DNA of 64,000 nt from Mobula hypostoma. Taxonomy: Eukaryota. Numbering within the stretch: the stretch's first letter is position 1; each line of letters begins with the position of its first letter. Under the pieces are notes generated by a model. That model was given only the letters and a program-made list of their open reading frames with translations. It made no database searches and was not told the origin of the DNA. The stretch is from positions 18,416,001-18,480,000 of the forward strand of contig NC_086097.1 in NCBI RefSeq assembly GCF_963921235.1, written 5' to 3'. Positions 11,310-55,945 of this stretch are shown here, piece after piece. The position numbers and the translations under genes are program-made.

Positions 11310-12160
11310 TGATGTTCTAATGAAGGGTCTCAGCCAAAAATATCAAATATTTATTTTCCTCCCATAGATGTTGCCTGACCTACTGAGTTCCTCCAGCATT
11401 TTGTGTGTGTTGCTCTGGATTTCCACTATTTACAGAATCTCTTGTGTTTATGATTTCAGGTTAATGATCAGATTAAGTTATCAGAAATGGGAATAGTTAT
11501 CAGAAATGAGATGACGAGCAACACACACAAAATGCTGGAGGAACTCAGCAGGTTAGGCAGCATCTGTGGAAATGAATAAACAGTTGATGCTTCAGGCCGA
11601 GACCCTTCATTGGGACTGGAAAGGAAAGGGGAAGAAGCCAGAATATGAAAGTGGGAGGAGGGGAAGGAGTAGAAGTTCAAAGGTGACAGGTGAAGCCAGG
11701 TGGGTGGCGGAGGGGAGATGAAATAAGAAGCTGGGAGGTGATAGGTGAAAAAGGTAAAGGTCTGGAGAAGAAGGAATCTGATAGGAGAGGAGAGTCAGCC
11801 ATGGGAGGGAAGGAGGAAGTGCCCCAGGAGGAGAATTAGCCAGGTGAGGAGAAAAGAATAGGTAAGAAGGGAGCCAGAACAGGGAATTGAAGGGGGTTAA
11901 GGGCGGGGGGGGGGTGGTAGGGGAAGAAAGGTTAAATGAAGGTAGAGAAATCAATGTTCACGCTCTTATATTGGAGGATACCCAGATGGAATTTGAAGTG
12001 TTTCTCCTCCAACCTGAGAGTGGATTCATCACACAATAGAGCAGGGCATGGACTGACATGTAGAATAGGAATGGGGATTCAAATTGAAATGGTTGCCCAC
12101 CAGCAAATCCTACGTATTGCAATTGAAGCAAAGGTGTTGAACAAAGTGGTCAAGATTAGA
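11310..12160. mobile_element. Two PLE terminal repeats, tail to tail; the minus-strand one extends toward the GIY-YIG 3' region
   Basis: Plus-strand copy 11310-11452 and minus-strand copy from ~11515; 11950-12150 is similar to 55450-55640. Confidence 0.72.
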
Positions 12161-18615: not shown

Positions 18616-19200
18616 AAAAAAAACATATTTTAATATTTATTTTTGGTTGACACAGGAAAGAATTCCTGGGAATTCTTGGTTACCATCTTCACAGAACTTA
18701 TAAGCCTGCACCCTCTATCAAACCTAAAGCCTTTAATGTCAAACAGCTTGTCTCTCTGATTATCTGAAAACTATTCAAGTCTTATATTTCCAACATTTAG
18801 CACTTCCTATCTTCTTCTGATATTGCAGATTCCATTTGTCTCCTATTGACACCTTATCCAGACATATCCTTAAAACCCTCTTTCAGTCCTTACATCACAG
18901 GTAAAGCACTCCCAATCATTAAGATCATCTACATGAAACATTGTTGTAGGAAAGCAGCATCCACCATCAAAGATTCTTACCTCCCAGGCCATGGTCTTTT
19001 CTCACTGCTGCCATCAGGTAGAAGAAACCTCAGGACTTGCACCACCAGGTTCAAGAGCTGTTACTACCACACAACCATCAGGCTTTCGAACAAAGGGGTT
19101 AACTGCACTCCCATCCATTGAGATGTTCACTCAACCAATAATCTCACTTCAAGGACTCTTTTTCTTGTTATTTCATGTTATTGTTATTTATTACTATTTA

Positions 19201-20788
19201 CAAACCCCATTTCCAGAAAAGTTGGGATATTTTCCAAAATGCAATAAAAACAAAAATCTGTGATATGTTAACTCACGTGAACCTTTATTTAACTGACAAA
19301 AGTACAAAGAAAAGATTTTCAATAGTTTTACTGACCAACTTAATTGTAGTTTGTAAACATACACAAATTTAGAATTTGATGGCTGCAACAACACTCAACA
19401 AAAGTTGGGACAGAGGCATGTTTACCACTGTGTTACATCACCTTTCCTTTTAATAACACTTTTTAATCCTTTTGGAACTGAGGATACTAATTGTAGTAGA
19501 TTTGCAATTGGAAATTTTGTCCATTCTTGCTTGATATAAGACTTCAGCTGCTCAACAGTCCGTAGTCTCTGCTGTCTGATTCTCCTCTTCATGATGCACT
19601 GTACATTTTCAATAGGAGATAGATCTGGACTGGAAGCAGGCCAGTCAAGCACACGCACTCTGTGTCTACAAAGCCACGCTGTTGTAGCCCGTGCAGAATG
19701 TGGTCTGGCATTGTCCTGCTGAAATAAGCATGGACGTCCCGGGAAGAGACGTCGCCTTGATGGCAACATATGTCTCTCTAAAATCCTAATATACGCCTCA
19801 GAGTCAATGGTACCTTCACATAGATGCAACTCATCCATGCCGTGGGCACTGATGCACCCCCATACCATCACAGATGCTGGCTTTTGCACCTTTCGCTGAT
19901 AACAATCTGGATGTCGTTTTCATCTTTGGCACGGAGAACTTGACTCCCGTTTTTTCCGAAAACTAGCTGAAATGTGGACTCATCTGACCACAGCACACTG
20001 TTCCACAGTCTTTCGGTCCATCTGAGATGAGTTCGCCGGCGTTTCTGCATAGAGTTGATGTATGGCTTCCTCCTTGTGTAATACAGTTTCAAGTTGCATT
20101 TCTGGATGCAGCGACGGACTGTGTTGAGTGACAATGGTTTTCCGAAGTACTCCCAAGCCCAGGTGGCTATAATTGTCACAGTAGCCTGACGGTTTCTTAG
20201 GCAGTGCCGCCTGAGGGCTCGAAGATCACGCGATTCAACAGTGGTTTCCGACCTTGCCCTTTACGCACTGAGATGTCTCTGAATTCTCTGAATCTTTTCA
20301 CAATATTATGTGCTGTAGATGTTGAAAGACCTAAATTCTCTGCAATCTTGCGTTGAGAAATGTTCCTTTTGAACTGACTAACAATTCTCTCGCGAATTTT
20401 GGCACAAAGGGGTGAGCCACGACCCATCCTTGCTTGCAAACACTGAGCCTTTGATGGACGCTACTTTTATACCCAGTCATGATACCTCACCTGCTATCAA
20501 TTAGTCTGCTTAATGTGGAGTCTTCCAAACCGGTGTTACTTGAATATTCTGTGCACTTTTCAATCTTATTTTAACTCTGTCCCAACTTTTGTTGAGTGTT
20601 TTGCAGCCATCAAATTCTAAATTTGTGTATATTTACAAAACACAATTAAGTTGGTCAGTAAAACTATTGAAAATCTTTTCTTTGTACTTTTGTCAGTTAA
20701 ATAAAGGTTCATGTGAACTAACATATCACAGAGTTTTGTTTTTATTGCATTTTGGAAAATATCCCAATTTTTCTGGAAATGGGGTTTG
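19201..20788 (-). mobile_element. Full-length Tc1 (DD34E) transposon, IR/DR type, 1588 bp, TA TSD
   Basis: ~214-bp TIRs (19201-19415 / 20575-20788), starting CAAACCCCATTTCCAGAAAAGTTGGGA, with an internal AAAAGTTGGGA direct repeat; TA at 19199-19200 and 20789-20790. Confidence 0.97.
19422..20427 (-). pseudogene. Tc1 transposase pseudogene (frameshifted into three ORFs)
   Basis: MGRGSPL...HTH, GQGRKP linker, VLWSDES, SVMVWGC, FQQDNARPH-(34 aa)-WPASSPDLSPIE. Confidence 0.95.
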
Positions 20789-21189
20789 TATTTATATTTG
20801 CATTTGCACAGTTTGTTGTCTTCTGCATGTTGGTTGATCTTTCATTGATCCTGTTATAGTTACTATTCTACAGATTTGCTGAGTATGCCCATAGGAAAGT
20901 GAACCTCAGCGTTGTGTATGGTGACACATATGTACTTTGATAAAAAGATTTACTTTGATCTTTACCAATACCAGATCTATTTCCTGTGGTCTTCTTCCAT
21001 CACCCTCGTCCCACATTCTGTGACTCAAACATTTTTCATTTCTATCTTTTTCAGTTCAGTTAACAGCTGTTGCCTGTTACTCAGAAAGTTTCAAGAATTT
21101 TCTGATGGTATTCCAAATTGTGGTTCCTGTATCGAAGCTTCTCTGTTGAAAATACTGATGGCGCTATTGCATTCATGATTTAGAATATG

Positions 21190-22434: not shown

Positions 22435-22959
22435 CGAGGGGTGATTGATAAGTTTGTGGCCTAAGGTAGAAGGAGTCAATTTTAGAAAACCTAGCACATT
22501 TATTTTTCAACATAGTCCCCTCCTACATTTACACACTTAGTCCAGCAATCCTGGAGCACATGGATTCCTTCTTTGTAGAAGTCGGCATCTTGGACCTCCA
22601 GAAAGTGGTCCAAAGCAGGGGTGATTGATAAGTTTGTGACCTAAACTAGAAGGAGATGAGTTAATAATTTCAAACTTTCTGCATAATCACTCAAAGAGTT
22701 GAACTGTACGTGCATGTAACGAGAGCTGTATAACTCATCTCTTTCTACCTTAGGCCACAAACTTATCAATCACCCCTGCTGTGAACCACTTTCTGGAGGT
22801 TCAAGACGCCGACTTCTACAAAAAAGGGATCCATGTGCTCCACGACCACTGGAATAAGTGTGTAAATGGAGGAGGGGACTATGTTGAAAAATAAATGTGC
22901 TAGGTTTTCTAAAATTGACTCTTCCCACCTTAGGCCACGAACTTATCAATCACCCCTCG
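22435..22959. mobile_element. Palindromic mariner-type MITE (525 bp) with TA TSD
   Basis: TA-CGAGGGGTGATTGATAAGTTTGTGGCCTAAGG...CCTTAGGCCACGAACTTATCAATCACCCCTCG-TA; arms of ~228 bp are inverted copies. Confidence 0.92.
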
Positions 22960-25960: not shown

Positions 25961-26369
25961 ATAAGGGAATATTAAGGTCAATATTTTGTGGTTAGCAGGA
26001 AATGAACATACTAAATATTTATGAGACAAGTCCTAGCTCTATAATTTTCTTTCACCATACAACCCTTATCTAGTGCTGGGCTCTATCAACTTACAATTTC
26101 ATTGCAATAGCAAATTTGGCTTCAGCTTTGAAACACAAAGCCCGAGAGCTCACTCTCGAAAAATCTGCATTTTACGATCTCTCTTTTCAATGCTACTTAA
26201 AACCTTTCTTCTTGATCAGGCATTTACCCACCTGTCCTAAAGCTTCATTATATTGTTTAATGTGAAACGCTGGCTAACAGTATTACTGTGACAAAATTAT
26301 GCAACATATTTCAGTCTTTGCTTTAATAGTCAGTTTTTAAAATGTATATATAGCACAAAAGCAAGTCCA

Positions 26370-27105
26370 TCTAGTCTGTGCTGAACTATTAATCTACCTA
26401 GATCCATTGACCTGATCCCAGACCATAATCAAAAATATTTCAAAGGCTTTCACAGAAGATTTGAGATGCACACCAGCAAAACCAACAGGTGATTGTCTCA
26501 TAGTGTCATAGCTTTATCCAGCATGGAAACAGGTCATTCAACCCAACTTGTGTATTCTGATCTTGATTGGCCTACATCCCTCTGAACATTTCCTCTCCAT
26601 GCACCCATCCAAGTTAATTGAACCCTCCTCTATCACTTCCTCTGGCAGCTCATTCAATGCATGAGTTTCCTCTGGGTGCTCTGATTTGCTCCCGGCGTTT
26701 GAAGATATATCGGTCAATAGGTTAATTGGTCGTTGTAAATTGTCCCATGGTTAGGTTAGGGTTAAATCAGGGGTTGTCCTGGGTTGGTGGGGGTTTGGAA
26801 GGGCTTGTTCTGTGGTATGTTTCTAAATAAATAAATACCCACCACCTTCTGTATGAACAATTCGCCTCCCAGTTTCCTCTGAAATGTTTTCCTCTCACCT
26901 TAGATCTACACCTTCTATCTTTACACTTCCCTGCTCTGTGGTATTTAAGTAACCTATGCCCCTCATAATTTTATAAATCTCCATAAGGTTACCCCCTCAG
27001 CCTCCTACACTCAAGGAGTAAAAGTCCAAGTCTATCCTCTTTATTACCCAAGACCCCAGTTCTGGGAACATCCTTATAAACCTTTCTTGCACTCTCTCCT
27101 CAACG
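26370..27105. mobile_element. CR1 3' fragments (minus) with an inserted V-SINE 3' half (~26660-26835, plus)
   Basis: GTTTCCTCTGGGTGCTCTGATTT...GGTTAATTGGTCGTTGTAAATTGTCCC; tail CTAAATAAATAAATA. Confidence 0.6.
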
Positions 27106-27132
27106 ATCAGCTTAAGAATTTTCACTGACTGT

Positions 27133-27426
27133 GGGCCGGCTGGTGGCGCAATGACATCAGCGCCGGACTCTGGAACGGAGGTTCTCGGGTTCAAACCCAG
27201 TCGGGTCCGCTCCCGAGTACGCTTTCCATCCGTGCTGGGTTGAGTATCAAGATCGCAACTCAAACTCGTAAAATAAAGGGAAAAATGCTGTGAAATGTCT
27301 GTGTGGGGAGTGGTGCAACACACAGTCTCTCTCTCGCTCCATGCCTTATAAAGGCATTAAAAAGACATCGTCCCGCCAACATCGCACACGCACGGATGCA
27401 CACACATGCCAAAAAAAAGAAAAAGA
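27133..27426 (+). mobile_element. tRNA-derived SINE with poly(A) tail and 15-bp TSD
   Basis: A box TGGCGCAATG, B box GGTTCAAACC; TSD AAGAATTTTCACTGA (27114-27128) / AAGAAATCTCACTGA (27427-27441); same family as 17470-17786. Confidence 0.9.
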
Positions 27427-27603
27427 AAGAAATCTCACTGAGTCATTCATATTTTGAACAGGTTAGAAAAGTTAATTCTATATCAAATTACTCTATAATT
27501 AGTAAACACAAGAAAGTCTGCTGATGCTGGAAATTCAAAGCAACACTTACAAAATACTGGAGGATATCAGCAGGTCAGGCAGTATCTGTGAAAATAAATA
27601 AGT

Positions 27604-27639
27604 AGTCGATGTTTCAGACCAAGACCCTTCATCAGGACA
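27604..27639 (-). ncRNA. Minimal type I hammerhead ribozyme motif (one decay in helix III)
   Basis: Minus strand: GTC-CTGATGA-AGGGTCTTGGTCT-GAAAC-ATC-GAC. Confidence 0.6.
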
Positions 27640-28273
27640 GGAAAGGAAGAGCGAAGATGTCAGAGTAAAAAGGTGAGGAGAGGAGGAGGGGAAGGAGGCT
27701 AGCTAGAAGGTGATATGTGAAGCCAGGTGGGTAGGAAAGGTAAAGGGTTGGAGAGAAAGAAATCTGATAGGAGAGGAGAGTGGACCACAGGAGAAAGGGA
27801 AAGAGGAGGGGACCCAGGAGGAGGTGATAGACAGATGAGAAGAGGTAAGATGCCAGCGTGGGGAATAGAAGAGAAGCGGAGGGGGAATGAAAACATTGTT
27901 TTACTGGAAGGAGAAGTTGACATTCATGCCATCAGGTTAGAGGCAAGCCCGATGGTGTTGCTCCTCCACCCTGGACCTCATCTTGGCACAAGAGGAGGCC
28001 ATGGACCGATATGTTGGAAGAGGAATGAGAATTAGAATTGAAATGTTTGGCCACTGGGAAGTCATGCTCTTGCAGATGGAACAGAGGTGCTCAATGAAGC
28101 GGTCCCCCAATTTACGGCGGGTATCAACAATGTAGAGGAAGCCTCATTAGGAGCACTGGACACAATAGATAGGCCCAGCAGATTCACAAATGAAGTGTTA
28201 CCTCATCTGTAAGGGCTGTTTCATGCCCTGAATGGAGGTGAGAGAAGAGGTAAGTGGGCAGTTGGGGCACTTA

Positions 28274-29888
28274 CAGTTGAAGTCAAAAGTTTACATACAC
28301 CTTAGCCAAATACATTTAAACTCAGTTTTTTACAATTCCTGACATTTAATCCTAGAAAACATTCCCTGTCTTAGGTCAGTTAGTGTCACTACTTTATTTT
28401 AAGAATGTGAAATGACAGAATAATAGTAGAGAGAATGATTTATTTCAGCTTTTATTTCTTTCATCACTTTCCCAGTGGGTCAGAAGTTTACATACACTTT
28501 CTTAGGATTTGGTGGCGTTGCCTTTAAATTGTTTAACTTGGGTCAAACGTTTTGGATGGCCTTCCACAAGCTTCTCACAATAAGTTGCTGGAATTTTGTT
28601 CCATTCCTCCAGACAGAACTGGAGGAATAAACTAAGTTACTAACTAAACTACATAAAGTAAGTTAACTGTGCCTTTAAACAGCTTGGAAAATTCCAGAAA
28701 ATGATGTCAAGTCTGCTTCATCCTTGGAAGCAATTTCCAAATGCCTGATGGTACCACATTCATCTGTACACACAATGGTATGCAAGTATAAACACCATGG
28801 GACCATGCAGGTGTCATACCACTCAGGAAGGAGACATATTCATCTCCTAGAGATGAATGTACTTTGGCACGAAAAGTGCAAATAAATCGCAGAACAACAG
28901 CAAAGAACTTTATGAAGATGCTGGAGGAAGCAGGCAGACAAGTATCTATATCCACAGTAGAACAAGTCCTATATTCACATAACCTGAAAGGAAGAAGCCA
29001 CTGCTCCAAAACTGCCATAAAAGAGCCAGATTACAGTTTGCAAGTGTACATGGGGACAAAGATCTTACTTTCTGGAGAAATATCCTCTGGTTTGATGAAA
29101 CAAAAGTTAAACTGTTTGGCCATAATGACCATCATTATGTTTGGAGGGAAAAAGGTGAGCCTTGCAAGCCGAAGAACACCATCCCAACCGTGAAGCATGG
29201 GGGTGGCAGCATCATGTTGTAGGGGTGTTTTGCTGCAGGAGGGACTGGTGCACTTCACAAAATAGATGGCATCATGAGGAAGGAAAATTATGTGGCTATA
29301 TTGAAGCAACATCTCAAGACATCAGCCAGGAAGTTTAAAGCTCGATCGCAAATGGGTCTTCCAAATGGACAATGACCCCAAGCATACCTCCAAAGTTGTG
29401 GCAAAGTTGCTTAAGGACAACAAAGTCAAGGTACTGGAGTGGCCATCACACAGCCCTGACCTCAATCCGATAGAAAGTTTGTGGGCAGAACTGAAAAAGC
29501 ATGTGCGAGCAAGGAGGCCTACAAACCTGACTCAGTTACACCAGTTCCATCTGGAGGAATGGAACAAAATTCCAGCAACTTACTGTGAGAAGCTTGTGGA
29601 AGGCTACCCAAAATGCTTGACCCAAGTTAAACAATTTAAAGGCAATGCTACCAAATACTACAAAGTGTATGTAAACTTCTGACCCACTGGGAAAGTGATG
29701 AAAGAAATAAAAGCTGAAATAAATAATTCTCTCTACTATTATTCTGACATTTCACATTCTTAAAATAAAGTAGTGATCCTTACTGACCTAAGACAGGGAA
29801 TGTTTTCTAGGATTAAATGTCAGGAATTGTGAAAAACTGAGTTTAAATGTATTTGGCTAAGGTGTATGTAAACTTCTGACTTCAACTG
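28274..29888 (+). mobile_element. Sleeping Beauty (salmonid Tc1 subfamily)-like transposon, 1615 bp, with ~349-bp symmetric inverted ends and TA TSD
   Basis: Ends CAGTTGAAGTCA(A/G)AAGTTTACATACACCTTAGCC; inner DR CCCAGTGGGTCAGAAGTTTACATACAC; TA at 28272-28273 and 29889-29890. Confidence 0.96.
28709..29682 (+). pseudogene. SB-like DD34E transposase pseudogene, N-terminus deleted
   Basis: SSLEAISKCLMVPHSSVHTMVCKYKHHGT, ILWFDETK, KHGGGSIML*GC, MDNDPKHTSKVVAK...WPSHSPDLNPIE...FKGNATKY; contains frameshifts and a stop. Confidence 0.95.
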
Positions 29889-30445
29889 TATGCCATTTGC
29901 AGGGTTAAGTGCGGGGAGGAAGATTAGTGTGGAGGGATGAATTCACAAGGTAGTCAATGAGGAGAAATCCCTGCGGATGGTGCGGGGTGCGGCAGGGGAG
30001 TAAAGATATGCTCGGTGGGAGGATCCCTTTGGAGATGGCAGAAGTTGCAGAGGGTGATGTTTTGGATATGGAGGCTTATGGGGTGGTAGGTATGGTTATT
30101 TAAAACGAGAGCTTCGCGGGCGTTAGTCCATTGTGCGTGGCCTATCAGCGGTGGCAACTGAGCTCGACAAAGGAGTGCTTCTCGCAGGTCAGAGGCAGTT
30201 ATTTAAAATGAGAGCTTCACAGACGTTAGTCCATTGGGGCTTATCAGTGGCGGCAACTGAGTTTGACGAACTAAATAAAAGTACAGAAGGGATAAGTGGA
30301 GCAGCCATTGTCGGGAGTAGGCCAGTGGCGAAAGTAGAAGTGACAGGCTCTGACCCATTCAGGCTTCGGCAAAAGTGGGCTTCGGCGAGGTAAGTGGTTA
30401 GCTGGAATTTGGTTCATCTTTGAATTTTTTTGAGGAATAGAGAGC

Positions 30446-31377
30446 ATGTTGGTGGGGTTAGCATTTTGCTCGGGGTGTCAGATATGGGAATCCTGGGAAT
30501 CCTCCAGTCTCCCAGATGGCCACATCTACGCCAGGTGCACCGAGATGCAGCTCCTGAGAGACCGTGTTAGGGATCTGGAGCTGCGGGCTTGATGACCTGC
30601 AGCTTATCAGGGAAAGCAAAAAGGAGGTAGAGAGGGGCTACAGGGCGTTAGTTACCCCGAGGCTGCAGGAGTTAGGTAGGTGGGTGACTGTCAGGGAAGG
30701 GAAGGGAAGAGCTCAGTTAGTAGAGAGCACGCTGTGGTCATCCCCCTCAGTAATCTCAGCAATTTTGGATGCGTTGAGGGGGATGACCTGACAGAGGACA
30801 ACCATGGTGATCGGGTCTCTGGCACTGAGCCTGGTTCCGTGGAGCAGAAGGGAAAGAGGAAGATGAGGAATGCAGTAGTCACAGGGGATTCCATAGTGAG
30901 GGGAACAGACAGGAGGTTCTGTCAGCCTGATAGAGATACCCGCATGGTGTGTTGCCTCCCAGGTGCCAGGGTATGGGATGTCTCGGATTGGGTGCAGAGT
31001 ATTCTGAAGGGAGAGGATGAAAGCCAGAAGTCTTGGTGCACGTTGGTACCAATGACATAGGTAGAAGAAGGGAGGAGGTCCTGAACAGAGAATTCAGGGA
31101 GTTGGGTAGGAAGCTGAAAAGCAGGACTTCTAGGGTAGTAATCTCAGGATTGCTGCCTGTGCCACGTGCTAGCGAGTGCAAGGATAGAATGATCAGGCAT
31201 AGTAATGTATGGCTGAGAGACTGGTGTAGGGGGCAGGGATTCAGATTCCTGGATCATGGGGGCCTCTTCTGGGGGAGGTATGACCTGTACAAAAAGGATG
31301 GGTTACAACTGAACCCAAAGGGGTTCAATATCCTAGCAGGTAAATTTAATAGAGCTGTTAGGGAGGATTTAACCTAA
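30446..31377 (+). pseudogene. CR1 ORF1 (Cys/His N-terminus, coiled coil, SGNH esterase)
   Basis: VVTGDSIVRG, CCLPGARV, VHVGTNDIG, VVISGLLPVP, DGLQLN; frameshifted. Confidence 0.9.
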
Positions 31378-31559
31378 TTTGGTAGGGGTCTGGGAACCGG
31401 AGTGATAAGGTTGAGGAAGGGGAAAACAGAAATAAATCAAAGATAGCATGCAACAGAGTTTATAAAAAGAACAGGCAGTAGATGAGGCTTAATCACAGCC
31501 AGTGGCATGAGTTACAGAGCAATAGAAGTGTGGTGCAGTTAAAACAGAAAACAAGAAAT

Positions 31560-34290
31560 ATTGGGCTTAAAGTGTTATATTTGAACACACGCAGCATAAG
31601 GAATAAAATGGACGATCTTGAAATTCAGCTATAGGTTGGGAAATATGGCGTTGTGGCCATCTCTGAAACTTGGCTAAATTATAGCTACCATTGGGAGCTG
31701 AACGTCCTAGTATATACAGTGTATCGGAAAGATAGGTTATTAGGCAGAGGGGGTGGTGTGGCTCTGTGTATAAGAAATAATATTAAATCATTTGAAAGAG
31801 ATGACATAGGATCGGAAGGTGTAGAGTCTCTAGGGGTTGAGTTAAGAAATGGCAAGGGTAAAAGGACCCGAATGGCAGTTGTATACAGGCCTCCAAACAG
31901 CAGCCGGGATGTGGATTACAGATTACAGCAGGAGATAGAAAAGGTGTGTCAGAAAGGCAATGTCGTGATAATCATTGGGGATTTTAACATGAAAATGGAT
32001 TGGGAAAACCAGGCCAGAACTGGACCTCAAGAGAGAGAATTTGTAGAATGTCTAAGGAATAGCTTTTTTGTACAGCTTATTGTTGAGCCCACTAGGGGAT
32101 CAGCTGTGCTGGATTGGGTGTTGTGCAGTGATCCAGAGGTGATAAGAGAGCTTAAGGTTAAGGAATCCTTAGGGAATAGTGAGCACAATATGATCGAGTT
32201 CACATTGAAATTTGAGAGGGAAAAAATAAAATCCAATGTGTCGGTATTTCAGTGGAATAAAGGAAATTACAATGGCATGAGAGGGGAACTGTCTGAAGTT
32301 GACTAGAAAGGGACATTTACAGGAAGGACAGCAGAGCAGCAATGGCTGGAGTTTCTGTGAAAAATGAGGGAAGTGCAAGGCAGATATATTCCAAATAAGA
32401 AGAAATTTTCAAAGGGAAGAAGGAAACTACCATAGCTGACAAGTGAAGTCAAAGCCAAAGTAAAAGCAAAAGAGAGGACATTCAAGGAAGCCAAAACTAG
32501 TGGGAAGATAGAGGATTGGGAAGCTTTTAAAAACTTGCAGAAGGAAACTAAGAAAGTCATTAAGAAGGAAAAGATGAATTATGAAAGGAAGCTGGCAACT
32601 AATATCAAAGAAGATACCGAAAGCATTTTAACGTATATAAAGGGTAAAAGAGAGTCAAGGGTAGATATAGGACCAATACAAAATTACGTTGGAGTTATTG
32701 TAATGAGAGATGCGGAGATGGCAGAGGAACTGAATTTGTATTTTGCATCAGTCTTCACAGTGGAAGACGTCTGCAGTATACCGGACATTCAAGGGTGTCA
32801 GGGAAGTGAAGTTTGTGCAGTGTTAATTACAACTGAGAAGGTGCTAAGGAAGCTTAATAGTTTGAAGGTGGATAAATCTCCTGGACCTGATAGAATGCAC
32901 CCTTGGGTTCTGAAGGAAGTAGCTGGAGAGATTGCAGAGGTATTAATGATGGTCTTTCAAGAATCGATAGATTCTGGCATTATACTGGATGACTGGAAAA
33001 TTGCAAATGTTACTCTGTTATTTAAGAAGGGTGGGAGGCAGCAGAAAGGAAACTATAGACCTGTTAGCCTGTCATCAGTGGTTGGGAAGTTGTTGGAATC
33101 GATGGTTGGGGATGAGTACCTGGAGACACATGACAGGATAGGCCAAAGCCAGCACAGTTTCCTGAAAGGAAGATCCTGCCTGACTAACCTACTGCAATTA
33201 TTTGAGGAAATTACACGCATGGTAGACAAAGGAGATGCAGTAGATTTGGTGTACTTGGATTTTCAGAAGGCCTTTGCCACACATGAGGCTGCTTAGCAAG
33301 ATAAGAGCCCATGGAATTACAGGGAAAGTTACTAGCATAGGAGGAGCATTGGCTGGTCAGCAGAAAACAGAGAGTGGCAATAAAGGGATCCTATTCTGGC
33401 TGGCTGCCGGTTACCAGTGGAGTTCCAGAGGGGTCGGTGTTGGGATTGCTGTTTTTTACAATGTATGTCAATGATGTGGACTATGGTATTAATGGATTTG
33501 TGGCTAAATTTGCAGATGATACAAAGATAGGTAGAGAAGTGGGTAGTGTTGAGGAAACAGAGAGCATGCAGAGAAACTTAGATAGTTTAGGGGAATGGGC
33601 AAAGAAGTGGCAAATGAAATACAATGTTGGAAAGTGTATGGTCATGCACTTTCATGGAAGAAATAAACGGGCAGACTATTATTTAGAGGGGGAAAGAATT
33701 CAAAATGCAGAGATGCAAAGGGACTTGGGAGTCCTTATGCAAGATACCCTAAAGGTTCACCTCCAGATTGAGTTGGTGGTGAAGAAGGCAAATGCAATGT
33801 TGGCATTCATTTCTAGAGGTATAGAATATAATAGCAGGGATGTGATGTTAAGACTCTAAAAGGCATTTGTGAGACCTCACTTGGAATATTGTGTGCCGTT
33901 TTGGGCTCCTTATTTTAGAAAGGATATACTGACATTGGAGAGGGTTCATAGAAGATTGACAAGAATGATTCCAGGAATGGAAGGTTTACTGTATGTGGAA
34001 CATCTGGCAGCTCTTGGGCTGTATTCCCTGGAGATCAGGTGAATGACGGGGGGATCTCATTGAAACATTCTGAATGTTAAAAGGCCTAAACAGATTAGAT
34101 ATGACAAAGTTACTTCCCATGGTAGGGGAGTCTAGGACAAGAGGGCATGACTTCAGGGCTGAAGGATGTCTATTTAGAACTGAGATGCAGAGAAATTACT
34201 TTAGTCAGAGGGTGGTAAATCTGTGGAATTTGTTGCCACGAGCAGCTGTGGAGGCCAAGTCATTTGTGTACTTGAGGCAGAGATAGATAA
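31560..34290 (+). pseudogene. CR1 ORF2 (APE endonuclease plus reverse transcriptase)
   Basis: AISETWL, VYRPPN, IIGDFN, SEHNMI; KSPGPD, NYRPVSL, YLDFQKAF, GVPEGSVLG, KFADDTK; multiple stops and frameshifts. Confidence 0.95.
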
Positions 34291-35593: not shown

Positions 35594-38241
35594 TGTCATG
35601 TTCACTCACCCATGACTACTGTTGAGACCCAAAGCCAGACAATAGACCAAGCTGGAGTACAAAATAACCCTTTATTCAGTAAAACTACATCAGTCTCAAA
35701 ACTCAACTCTTTTTTTCATTTTTACAGCAGTTGGCATCCACACTGTTGCATTACTGCCATCTTCAGGATTTATTGTCCCTCATTGTCCATTCATTTTAAA
35801 GCCGTCTTTCCAGTTCCGTCGCCCTTAAAAAACTAAACAACCATTTCCTCCCCTGATCATTCCAATAAACCTTTAACACTGTTCTCTACCAGTCCTATTT
35901 TGCGCAATTGTTGTAACATTTGTTGCCTTTCCTGTGCAAATTTCCGACATGAAATAAGGATATGCTCTACTGTTTCAGTCTCCTGACATAGATCGCAAAA
36001 ACCTGTTGGATGCTTATTTATGATGGCCAGAGTATCATTAAGGTTGCTGTGTCCAATTCTCAGTCTACTTATAATTACTTGCTCCTTCTGCTTTACTCCT
36101 CTACTTCTTCCCATATCTACTCTGTTCTGAATTGAATGTAAATGTCTTCCTTTTATTGCTCTATCCCAATGCTGCTGCCACTGTTGATTTATCCTTCTCC
36201 ACACTATGCTCTTCCCCTCTGATTTTGATAGTTTAATATTGACCTCTACAGATCCTTTTTTGACTGCTGCTTTTGCCAGCCTATCTACTTGTCTCATTTC
36301 CCATAATACCCGAATGTGCTGGAACCCACATGAATGTGATATTTTTGCCTTGTCTAGCCAGTCTTGATATTTGCAAACAGGATCTCATAAAGCAGATCCT
36401 GGTGACCTCTAGATGCACCTGCCTTAATGCTTGCAAGGGCCGATACAGAATCGCTACGTATCATAATATTACTACAATCAACCTGCTCACTCCATTCTAG
36501 TGCTAACAATATGGCAAACATTTCAACTGCATATACACTCAAGCAATCAGGTGTTCTCTTGCTAATTTCCACTTGGTAACTTGGTACAACAATTGCAGAC
36601 CCTGTTGCACCTGTTTCTGGATCCTTTGATCCATCCGTAAAAATCTGTATGCCTTTATATTTACATTCCCTATAACTATGATATTCACTGAGTATATCAG
36701 CCGTCTTATTACTGTGCTTAATCTTAAACAATTCCAAATCTACAGAGGGATCATCTAATACCCAGAAAGGTCTAACAGGCCACACCACACTTGGACAAAA
36801 CTCTTTATCGGATACACCCATATCTTTTGCTGTTTGCTCTCCTGTCCAGCCAAAACTTTCTTTTTGTGTCCTCTTCTTCTCCCAACATGTCTGCAACACT
36901 CTTTTTGTAGGATGGCTATCACCATGCCCTCTTAAATTAATCCAGTAATTGGCCTCCAGCTGTTTACGCCGCAGCCCCAATGGCATTTCATTTGCTTCAA
37001 CTTGGAGTGCACACACTGGGGAAGTTCTAACCGCTCCCAAGCACACCCTTAGAGCCCGAGCTTGTACGATATCCAGTTCTGCCAGCACAGATTTTGGTGC
37101 TGACCCGTATACAATACTTCCATAGTCTAATCTTTATCTTATTAATGCTACATAAATATACTTCAGCGATGCAAAATCAGCACACCTTTCCAATCCAGCA
37201 AGACACCTCATGACATTTATCACATTTTTACATTTAGTAACTACATATCTAACATGTTAATCTCAAGTCAAAGTGCACTCCCAAAAACCGAAAACTTTCA
37301 ACTCACTCCAGGTTACTTCCATACAGATTCAAATTAAGTCCCCTGAACTTTTTCCTTGTAAAGAACATGGCTTTTGTCTTCTCTACTGAAAATTTAACAC
37401 CCCACTTTGTCCCCCACTCTTCAACTTGATTAATTCCATCTTGCATTTTCGTAACTATATGTTCAATATTTCTCCCTCTTTTCCACAAAGCCCCATCATC
37501 TGCAAACAATGACCTCCCCACTTCCGTTGGAATATTTACGAATATATCATTTATCAAAATGGAGAATAAAGTTGGACTCACTACACTCCCCCGAGGCATC
37601 CCGTTTTCTACAACATACTGGCTTGATAGCTCTGATCCTATCTTCATCTGAATAGTTCTCCCATTTAAAAAGTCCTTAACCCAATTGAGCATCACCCCCC
37701 CGCCCGATTCCCATTAAATGTAGCTTGATTAGGAGCCCCTCTTTCCATAACGTATCATAAGCTTTCCCAACATCAAAAAAAAACTGCAACCACTGTCTCT
37801 TTATTTACTTCAACCTTTCTTATTTCATCCTCTAGACACAACACTGGATCCATAGTATTCCTTCCTTTCCTAAACCCGCTTTGATACGTAGCCACCATAC
37901 CTCTACTTTCCAAGAAGTACACTAACCTCTCATTTATCATGCGTTCCATAAGTTTACATACATGTGATGTCAAGGCAATTGGCCTGTAGTTTTCTGGCCT
38001 TGCTGGCATCTTCCCCAGGTTTCCTTATTGGAATAATTATTGCCTCTTTCCAGCTCCCTGGTATTCTCTCTTCATCCCAGACTTTGTTATACAGAAGCAG
38101 TCAAAACTCAACTCAAACTCACCCTCCCAGCACAACTAGGTGGATTACCCCAGAACAATTGAGTCCTTGACTGGGACAATGACCAATCAGTGAACATCAG
38201 CCCAGGATTGGTTTCAGCTGATTCTTTCGAGCACTGTAACA
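35594..38241 (-). mobile_element. Solo LTR (~240 bp net) split by the Nimb LINE
   Basis: TGTCATG...TGTAACA termini; imperfect 5-bp TSD CTCTA/CTCCG; TTTATT (minus-strand AATAAA) at 35671. Confidence 0.7.
35710..38100 (-). mobile_element. 5'-truncated Nimb/I-group LINE (RT, RNase H, CCHC) with 14-bp TSD
   Basis: NYRPIALTS, QSGFRKGR, GMPRGSVVSP, LFADD, IFTDGSK...EMFAILLAL...SDSVSAL, RLRIGH...CDLCQETETVEHILISC; TSD TCAAAACTCAACTC at 35696-35709 and 38101-38114. Confidence 0.95.
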
Positions 38242-55449: not shown

Positions 55450-55945
55450 ATCAGTTTTGAGGCTGCCCAGATGGAATACAAGGTGTTATTCCTTCAACCT
55501 GAGTGTGGCCTTATCACAACGGTAGAAGAGGCCATGGATTGACATATCGGAATGAGAATGGGAAATGGAATTAAAATGGATGGCCACTGGGAAATCCTGC
55601 TTCTTCTGGCGGACGGAGCATAGGTGCTCGGCGAAGTGGTCTCCCAATTTTCGTTGGGTCTTACCGATATACGGGAGGCCACACCAGGAGCACCAGACAC
55701 AGTATATAATCCCAACAGACTCACTAGTGGAAAGACTGTTTGAGGCGCTGAATGGTAGTGAGGGACGAGGTGTAGGGGCAGATGTAGCACTTGTTCTGCT
55801 TGCAAAGTCAGTGCCAGAAGGGAGATCAGTGGGACGGGATGAATGGACAAGGGAGTCATGTAGGGAGCAAACCCTGCTGAAAGCAGAAAGCAAGGTGGGG
55901 GGAAAGATGTGTTTGGTGGTGGGATCCCGTTGGAAGTTTGGGAGT
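55450..55945 (-). pseudogene. Penelope GIY-YIG endonuclease fragment
   Basis: FQRDPTTKHIFP...IIYCVWCSWCGLPYIGKTQRKLGDHFAEH...PVAIHFNS--HS. Confidence 0.88.

Follow-up and report, generated by a model that had tools for sequence, protein, structure and literature searches.

Can a Sleeping Beauty (SB) transposon that carries its right end twice, once in place of the left end, be mobilised in nature? This question is raised by an element at 28274–29888 of the window, which is the whole 64,000-nucleotide stretch of DNA analysed here. Engineered SB with two right IRs reportedly transposes poorly. SB serves in the clinic for gene transfer; the asymmetry between its left and right ends is thought to order the assembly of the synaptic complex. 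Reviews (PMC7827188, PMC5224488 and PMC8151067) call the half-DR of the left end a non-essential enhancer. In the accessible part of PMC4505599, the work on right/right SB is cited only for the preference for one end.

Three pieces of the transposase match SB structures only, namely 5CR4 (SB100X; E-values of 5e-56 and 2e-43) and 5UNK (3e-17), and the translation has 34 residues from the second D to the E of the catalytic triad. The intact 340-aa ORF of an autonomous SB is not present here. A 171-bp deletion at 28709, with 2-bp microhomology, has taken away what followed of the 5'UTR, together with the ATG; further downstream, the reading frame has lost 1 bp near 28842 and 13 bp near 28988, is interrupted by a stop codon at 29220–29222 and has gained 1 bp near 29335. 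The element is a dead, non-autonomous SB-clade Tc1 transposon (DD34E). It resembles Sleeping Beauty and the Tss1-type SB clade (Jia et al., 2022; PMC9777934) in its transposase, its IR/DR ends and its TA target. It differs from this clade in having a right end in place of the left, no half-DR, a dead ORF and subfamily alleles of its own.

Relatives were collected by a protein scan of metagenome contigs, which returned 34 loci, three of them from the SB clade (L001, L002 and L024) and two of these complete (L001 and L002). The DNA identity of the element to the two complete canonical copies is 91%. Genome contigs scanned by protein yielded one distant locus (36%), viral contigs four candidates with none confirmed, and the plasmid collection no match to the element. 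Over 28710–29888, the DNA is 91% identical to SB copies of fish type. In the accessible part of Jia et al., 2022 (PMC9777934), Chondrichthyes are not among the groups listed with an SB clade; a ray as host would place the clade beyond that listing and would imply horizontal transfer.

The element has an unusual left end. As the earlier note had seen, 28274–28622 is the reverse complement of 29541–29888, and alignment of both arms over 349 columns gave 94.6% identity with 19 differences. The inverted copy takes in the right IR/DR in full, together with 122 bp from the 3' end of the transposase codons, and its outer part is of the right type when compared with the canonical copy L001 (Table 1). 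The ends measure about 225 bp each, and all four DR cores are perfect, with a spacing of 197 bp in either arm. The differences between the arms are unevenly distributed: the transposase-coding part has 12 in 122 bp, the IR/DR 7 in 227 (Fisher p = 0.012). The higher divergence of the coding part may reflect an AT-rich IR that mutates less readily, conversion that acted between the ends, or constraint imposed by repeated transposition. CpG decay was rejected as its cause, with a CpG in one arm at only 2 of the 12 sites. No second copy of the element was found elsewhere in the window, and Rfam gave no matches over 26000–32000.

Table 1. Features of the right/right element and of its insertion site, in window positions
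Feature	Position	Strand	Remark
Interrupted host repeat, left part	27500..28271	-	multi-copy in the window
Left TA target-site copy	28272..28273	.	adjoins the outer edge of the left arm
Left arm, outer part: right IR/DR in inverted orientation, without half-DR	28274..28500	-	215/225 to canonical right end vs 165/238 to canonical left
Left-arm perfect DR cores	28287..28300, 28484..28497
Left arm, inner part: final 122 bp of the transposase-coding region, inverted	28501..28622	-
10-bp perfect hairpin across the breakpoint	28603..28628	+
Filler from short pieces of both breakpoint neighbourhoods	28623..28649	.
Sole true left-end remnant: damaged 3' half of inner left DR and 5'UTR start	28650..28709	+	57/60 identical to canonical copies
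SB-clade transposase pseudogene (DD34E)	28710..29660	+
Right arm: native right IR/DR, preceded by the 3' end of the transposase	29541..29888	+	218/225 to canonical right end
Right-arm perfect DR cores	29665..29678, 29862..29875
Right TA target-site copy	29889..29890	.	adjoins the outer edge of the right arm
Interrupted host repeat, right part	29891..30030	-

The breakpoint between the left arm and the interior carries a repair signature. Six bases have been added to a 4-bp stem that the coding sequence already possesses, which makes a perfect 10-bp hairpin. The chance of such an extension is about 4e-4, and the hairpin (z = -3.9) was matched by none of 200 shuffles. In the adjoining 28623–28650, 24 of 28 bases are covered by local 6-mers from the two breakpoint neighbourhoods, a coverage equalled by 101 of 20,000 shuffles. 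Snap-back and multi-round SD-MMEJ are described in passages of PMC2943611, and the junction, a putative snap-back hairpin followed by locally templated filler, matches that description. A Pol theta-like enzyme was presumably involved. Beyond the filler, a remnant of the true left end does exist, as the earlier note had stated, but it begins at 28650 and not at about 28665.

The next question is whether this structure is real at all. The assembly could have joined two unrelated copies into a chimera, and the best of 24 read runs contained only 0.32 of the words. The insertion site argues otherwise. The two flanks, aligned separately, match a single paralog in the window at 55687–55792 and 55800–55931, with a spacing of one TA. 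In addition, 74 contigs of run X22 depart at 28261 and resume in the right-flank sequence in register, again with the spacing of one TA. The earlier description of a TA at both ends, with the host repeat contiguous over a single TA, thus holds in the assembly and in the reads. A chimera would have to preserve this register on both sides; it would also have to account for arms that differ at 19 sites, with private changes on each, and for filler at the junction that is non-parental and templated. Since the junction is a templated repair scar, an assembly join is disfavoured, and the probability left to a chimera is very small.

The interrupted host repeat is presumably Penelope-like (PLE), an assignment made from a GIY-YIG-like motif in its translation. 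A Pfam scan of the flank ORF and of the paralog ORF assigned neither to a family. At 11319–11611 of the window, two ends of the host-type repeat meet in inverted orientation and form a palindrome, with 73% identity over about 300 bp.

The origin of the left arm can be traced by comparison with canonical copies. A canonical left end is present in all three SB-clade loci (L001, L002 and L024), and in the complete relatives the left and right ends agree at 170 of 238 positions. A family consensus with symmetric ends everywhere was rejected on these grounds. The left end of L001 has a half-DR-like motif (L001 1571) between its two DRs, which is probably the published half-DR (HDR); the left arm of the element lacks this motif. 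Compared with L001 and L002, 15 changes are common to both arms, 10 are private to the left arm, 8 are private to the right arm, and 1 is ambiguous. Because the 15 diagnostic changes are common to both arms, the left arm was copied from a right end of the same subfamily. Together with the right-type left arm and the missing half-DR-like motif, these changes bear out the earlier proposal that the left end had been replaced by the right end. Against run X22, for which 40 of 122 differences are listed, nine of the changes private to the left arm again prove private. The subfamily alleles of the element occur in none of the 31 full-length relatives with a C-terminus listed (of 35).

When the replacement took place is less certain. 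The end-swapped form probably arose once, in a progenitor in which a break was misrepaired, and was then probably mobilised in trans to the present TA site as a right/right element. In the progenitor, the swap may have begun as a change of template during gap repair, at the outer DR of 27 bp common to both ends, or as a deletion spanning two adjacent copies in opposite orientation. The broken ends would then have been joined by synthesis-dependent end joining, with snap-back followed by more short templated steps of a Pol theta-like kind. Four normally spaced DRs would have sufficed for a helper transposase without the enhancer, and the element would be one among many right-end-rich derivatives in the host lineage. 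In L001 (1–1415), a canonical SB copy abuts a Tc1-like element on the opposite strand, a neighbour identified by eye. Such an adjacent, opposite-strand arrangement could be a source of end swaps.

Alternatively, a normal left/right copy was inserted here, and its left end was overwritten in place by the right one when a break was repaired later, so that the right/right form never moved. This reading is clearly the less probable, at roughly one chance in four. The canonical left and right ends are identical over their first 27 bases; copying could start within this common terminal stretch, and in-place repair would therefore also keep both TAs. The repair scar, too, can form at any locus. Furthermore, the junction has not been met a second time: a pattern scan of metagenome, genome and viral contigs, collections that are mostly microbial with little vertebrate DNA, gave no matches, the junction residues end none of 31 antisense-frame proteins, and neither a contig nor a joint bridging the filler is among those listed for four read runs (15 of 175 joints and 40 of 122 differences). 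The age of the swap bears on the same alternative. Private divergence amounts to 8–11 of 349 per arm and resembles that of the interior (at least 23 changes in about 790 bp among the differences listed), so that swap and insertion should be of similar age, which speaks against a late repair and is still compatible with an early in-place event.

Mobilisation of a right/right progenitor gains some support from read depth. Four of the 24 runs compared (X1, X2, X4 and X22) were mapped on 28000–29500, the small-share RNA runs X15–X20 being left aside, and only X22 among the four covers the host flank and has the subfamily alleles. In X22, the contigs sum to a depth over the right IR that exceeds the 5'UTR remnant 28-fold and the interior 4.6-fold. 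The corresponding ratios in X1, X2 and X4 are 0.7–1.4 and 0.8–1.7. By bins, the X22 depth is 55–69k over 29377–29478 and rises to 177k in the bin mirroring 29552–29602; the arm bin beside it, where private mismatches are numerous, shows no clear excess at 76k. Summed contig depth is not copy number, and short contigs are lost at clusters of mismatches. The mapped stretch held no true left IR, so the X22 ratios say nothing of the abundance of left IRs. Read within these bounds, the right-end excess in X22 is a hint of many right/right or right-end-rich derivatives, and together with the 5'UTR deficit it weighs against a replacement confined to this locus. The 5'UTR-remnant bin has about one quarter of the depth of the 5' interior, and the exact junction is therefore at most a minority form in X22. 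No canonical left-DR joint is among the 15 X22 joints listed; X22 has 6–21 times fewer contigs than the other runs, and neither this zero nor the counts of loose ends were taken as evidence.

A stronger version of this reading holds that right/right derivatives are the dominant mobile SB form in the host lineage, many times commoner than canonical left/right copies. It is offered tentatively and is rather doubtful at present. According to the accessible text of PMC5224488, IR/DR elements hold back copies with internal deletions from being mobilised and show a preference for the left end, which counts against a mobilised right/right element. For the same reason, an amplified right/right family would be worth noting, since IR/DR ends are argued there to suppress the spread of deleted copies.

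Rearrangements of this type have precedents among the mariner transposons. In Rpmar49 of Rhodnius prolixus, represented by 13 independent insertions, the 3' part stands in place of the 5' part (Filée et al., 2015; PMC4678618). Like the present element, Rpmar49 and Rpmar17 are non-autonomous, have their 5' part replaced by the 3' part, and possess long TIRs with transposase homology. The accessible text of the same paper attributes their rearrangement to abortive gap repair. They are simple-IR mariners of less than 1 kb with proven amplification at multiple sites; the element of the window, in contrast, is a 1.6-kb IR/DR transposon whose ends normally differ and whose amplification is only hinted at. 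The Drosophila mariner MITEs Dromar7, Dromar11, Dromar28 and Dromar36 also have one end swapped for the other and unusually long TIRs, as described for seven sublineages in passages of Wallau et al., 2014 (PMC4161770). They belong to the mariner family as well, and the exchange took the opposite direction, with the 5' part replacing the 3' part. As far as these sources go, end replacement as such is already published for mariner, and the right/right IR/DR element is a variant of a known rearrangement.

Among the SB elements themselves, a natural right/right SB or other IR/DR element was not found in print, in a literature that leaves out most subscription journals and the Repbase and Dfam entries. 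The available text of Jia et al. gives SB TIRs of 44–415 bp without describing their make-up, and similar end-swapped cases may be among the long-TIR elements. For salmon, the accessible part of PMC6362248 presents canonical ends only.

If the family did spread in right/right form, this would show that four DRs are enough in vivo and that the half-DR of the left end is dispensable in nature. The elements would then provide natural end variants for assay and would widen the end-replacement route from simple-IR mariners to IR/DR elements. Dominance of right/right derivatives, if true, would further supply a counter-example to the laboratory picture of a needed left end with its enhancer and of suppressed defective copies. 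As a single dead copy, the element is an ordinary repair product.

The earlier note also considered that the element could act as a source of silencing. A read-through transcript would fold into a 349-bp stem that includes transposase sequence, and small RNAs derived from it would have helped to shut the family down. The maize locus Mu killer provides the precedent: PMC3440606 describes an inverted duplication of transposase sequence with two copies of the same TIR. The likeness extends to structure, whereas read-through transcripts and silencing are demonstrated for the approximately 4-kb hairpin of Mu killer and the 349-bp arms of the window element are known from their sequence. The predicted duplex of the arms has an energy of -560 kcal/mol and perfect runs of 63, 49 and 44 bp, and the predicted folding of the whole element reaches -799 kcal/mol, compared with -533 kcal/mol for canonical L001. 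Against such a role stands the loss of most of the 5'UTR and left end, which contribute to transcription according to the accessible literature. Moreover, the 40 of 55 long ORFs scanned gave transposon-type families only and no host protein-coding family, in a search that short exons would escape, and the coding share of the stem is only 122 bp. Long stems are also common here, as the Tc1 element at 19199–20790, 8 kb away and unrearranged, has 217-bp arms that are 96% identical. The formation of dsRNA by such a transcript would be structurally possible, and a past contribution of the locus to silencing is quite improbable.

This Tc1 element lies on the minus strand and belongs to another clade, with 36% amino-acid identity to the SB copy. 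It is near full-length and frameshifted, contains the domains DDE_3 and HTH_Tnp_Tc3_2, and is flanked by TA next to its TIRs.

A further end-modified transposon is located about 6 kb from the SB element. It is a TA-flanked mariner-derived MITE of 525 bp (22435–22959) with two 229-bp arms identical at 209 of 229 positions. Each arm carries transposase C-terminal codons (SETMAR/Mos1 matches with E-values of 7e-5 to 6e-4) and repeats the terminal motif once more internally; like the SB element, the MITE has a 3' end on both sides. Since this mariner MITE also has two 3' ends, end replacement appears to be a process that recurs in the host genome.

The right-hand side of the window holds other retroelements. 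A LINE on the plus strand (30680–33859), with a GDSL-esterase-like ORF1, an endonuclease and a reverse transcriptase, starts about 800 bp to the right of the SB element. Farther right, on the minus strand (35857–37713), lie the remains of a retroelement in which domains of reverse transcriptase and of RNase H are present.
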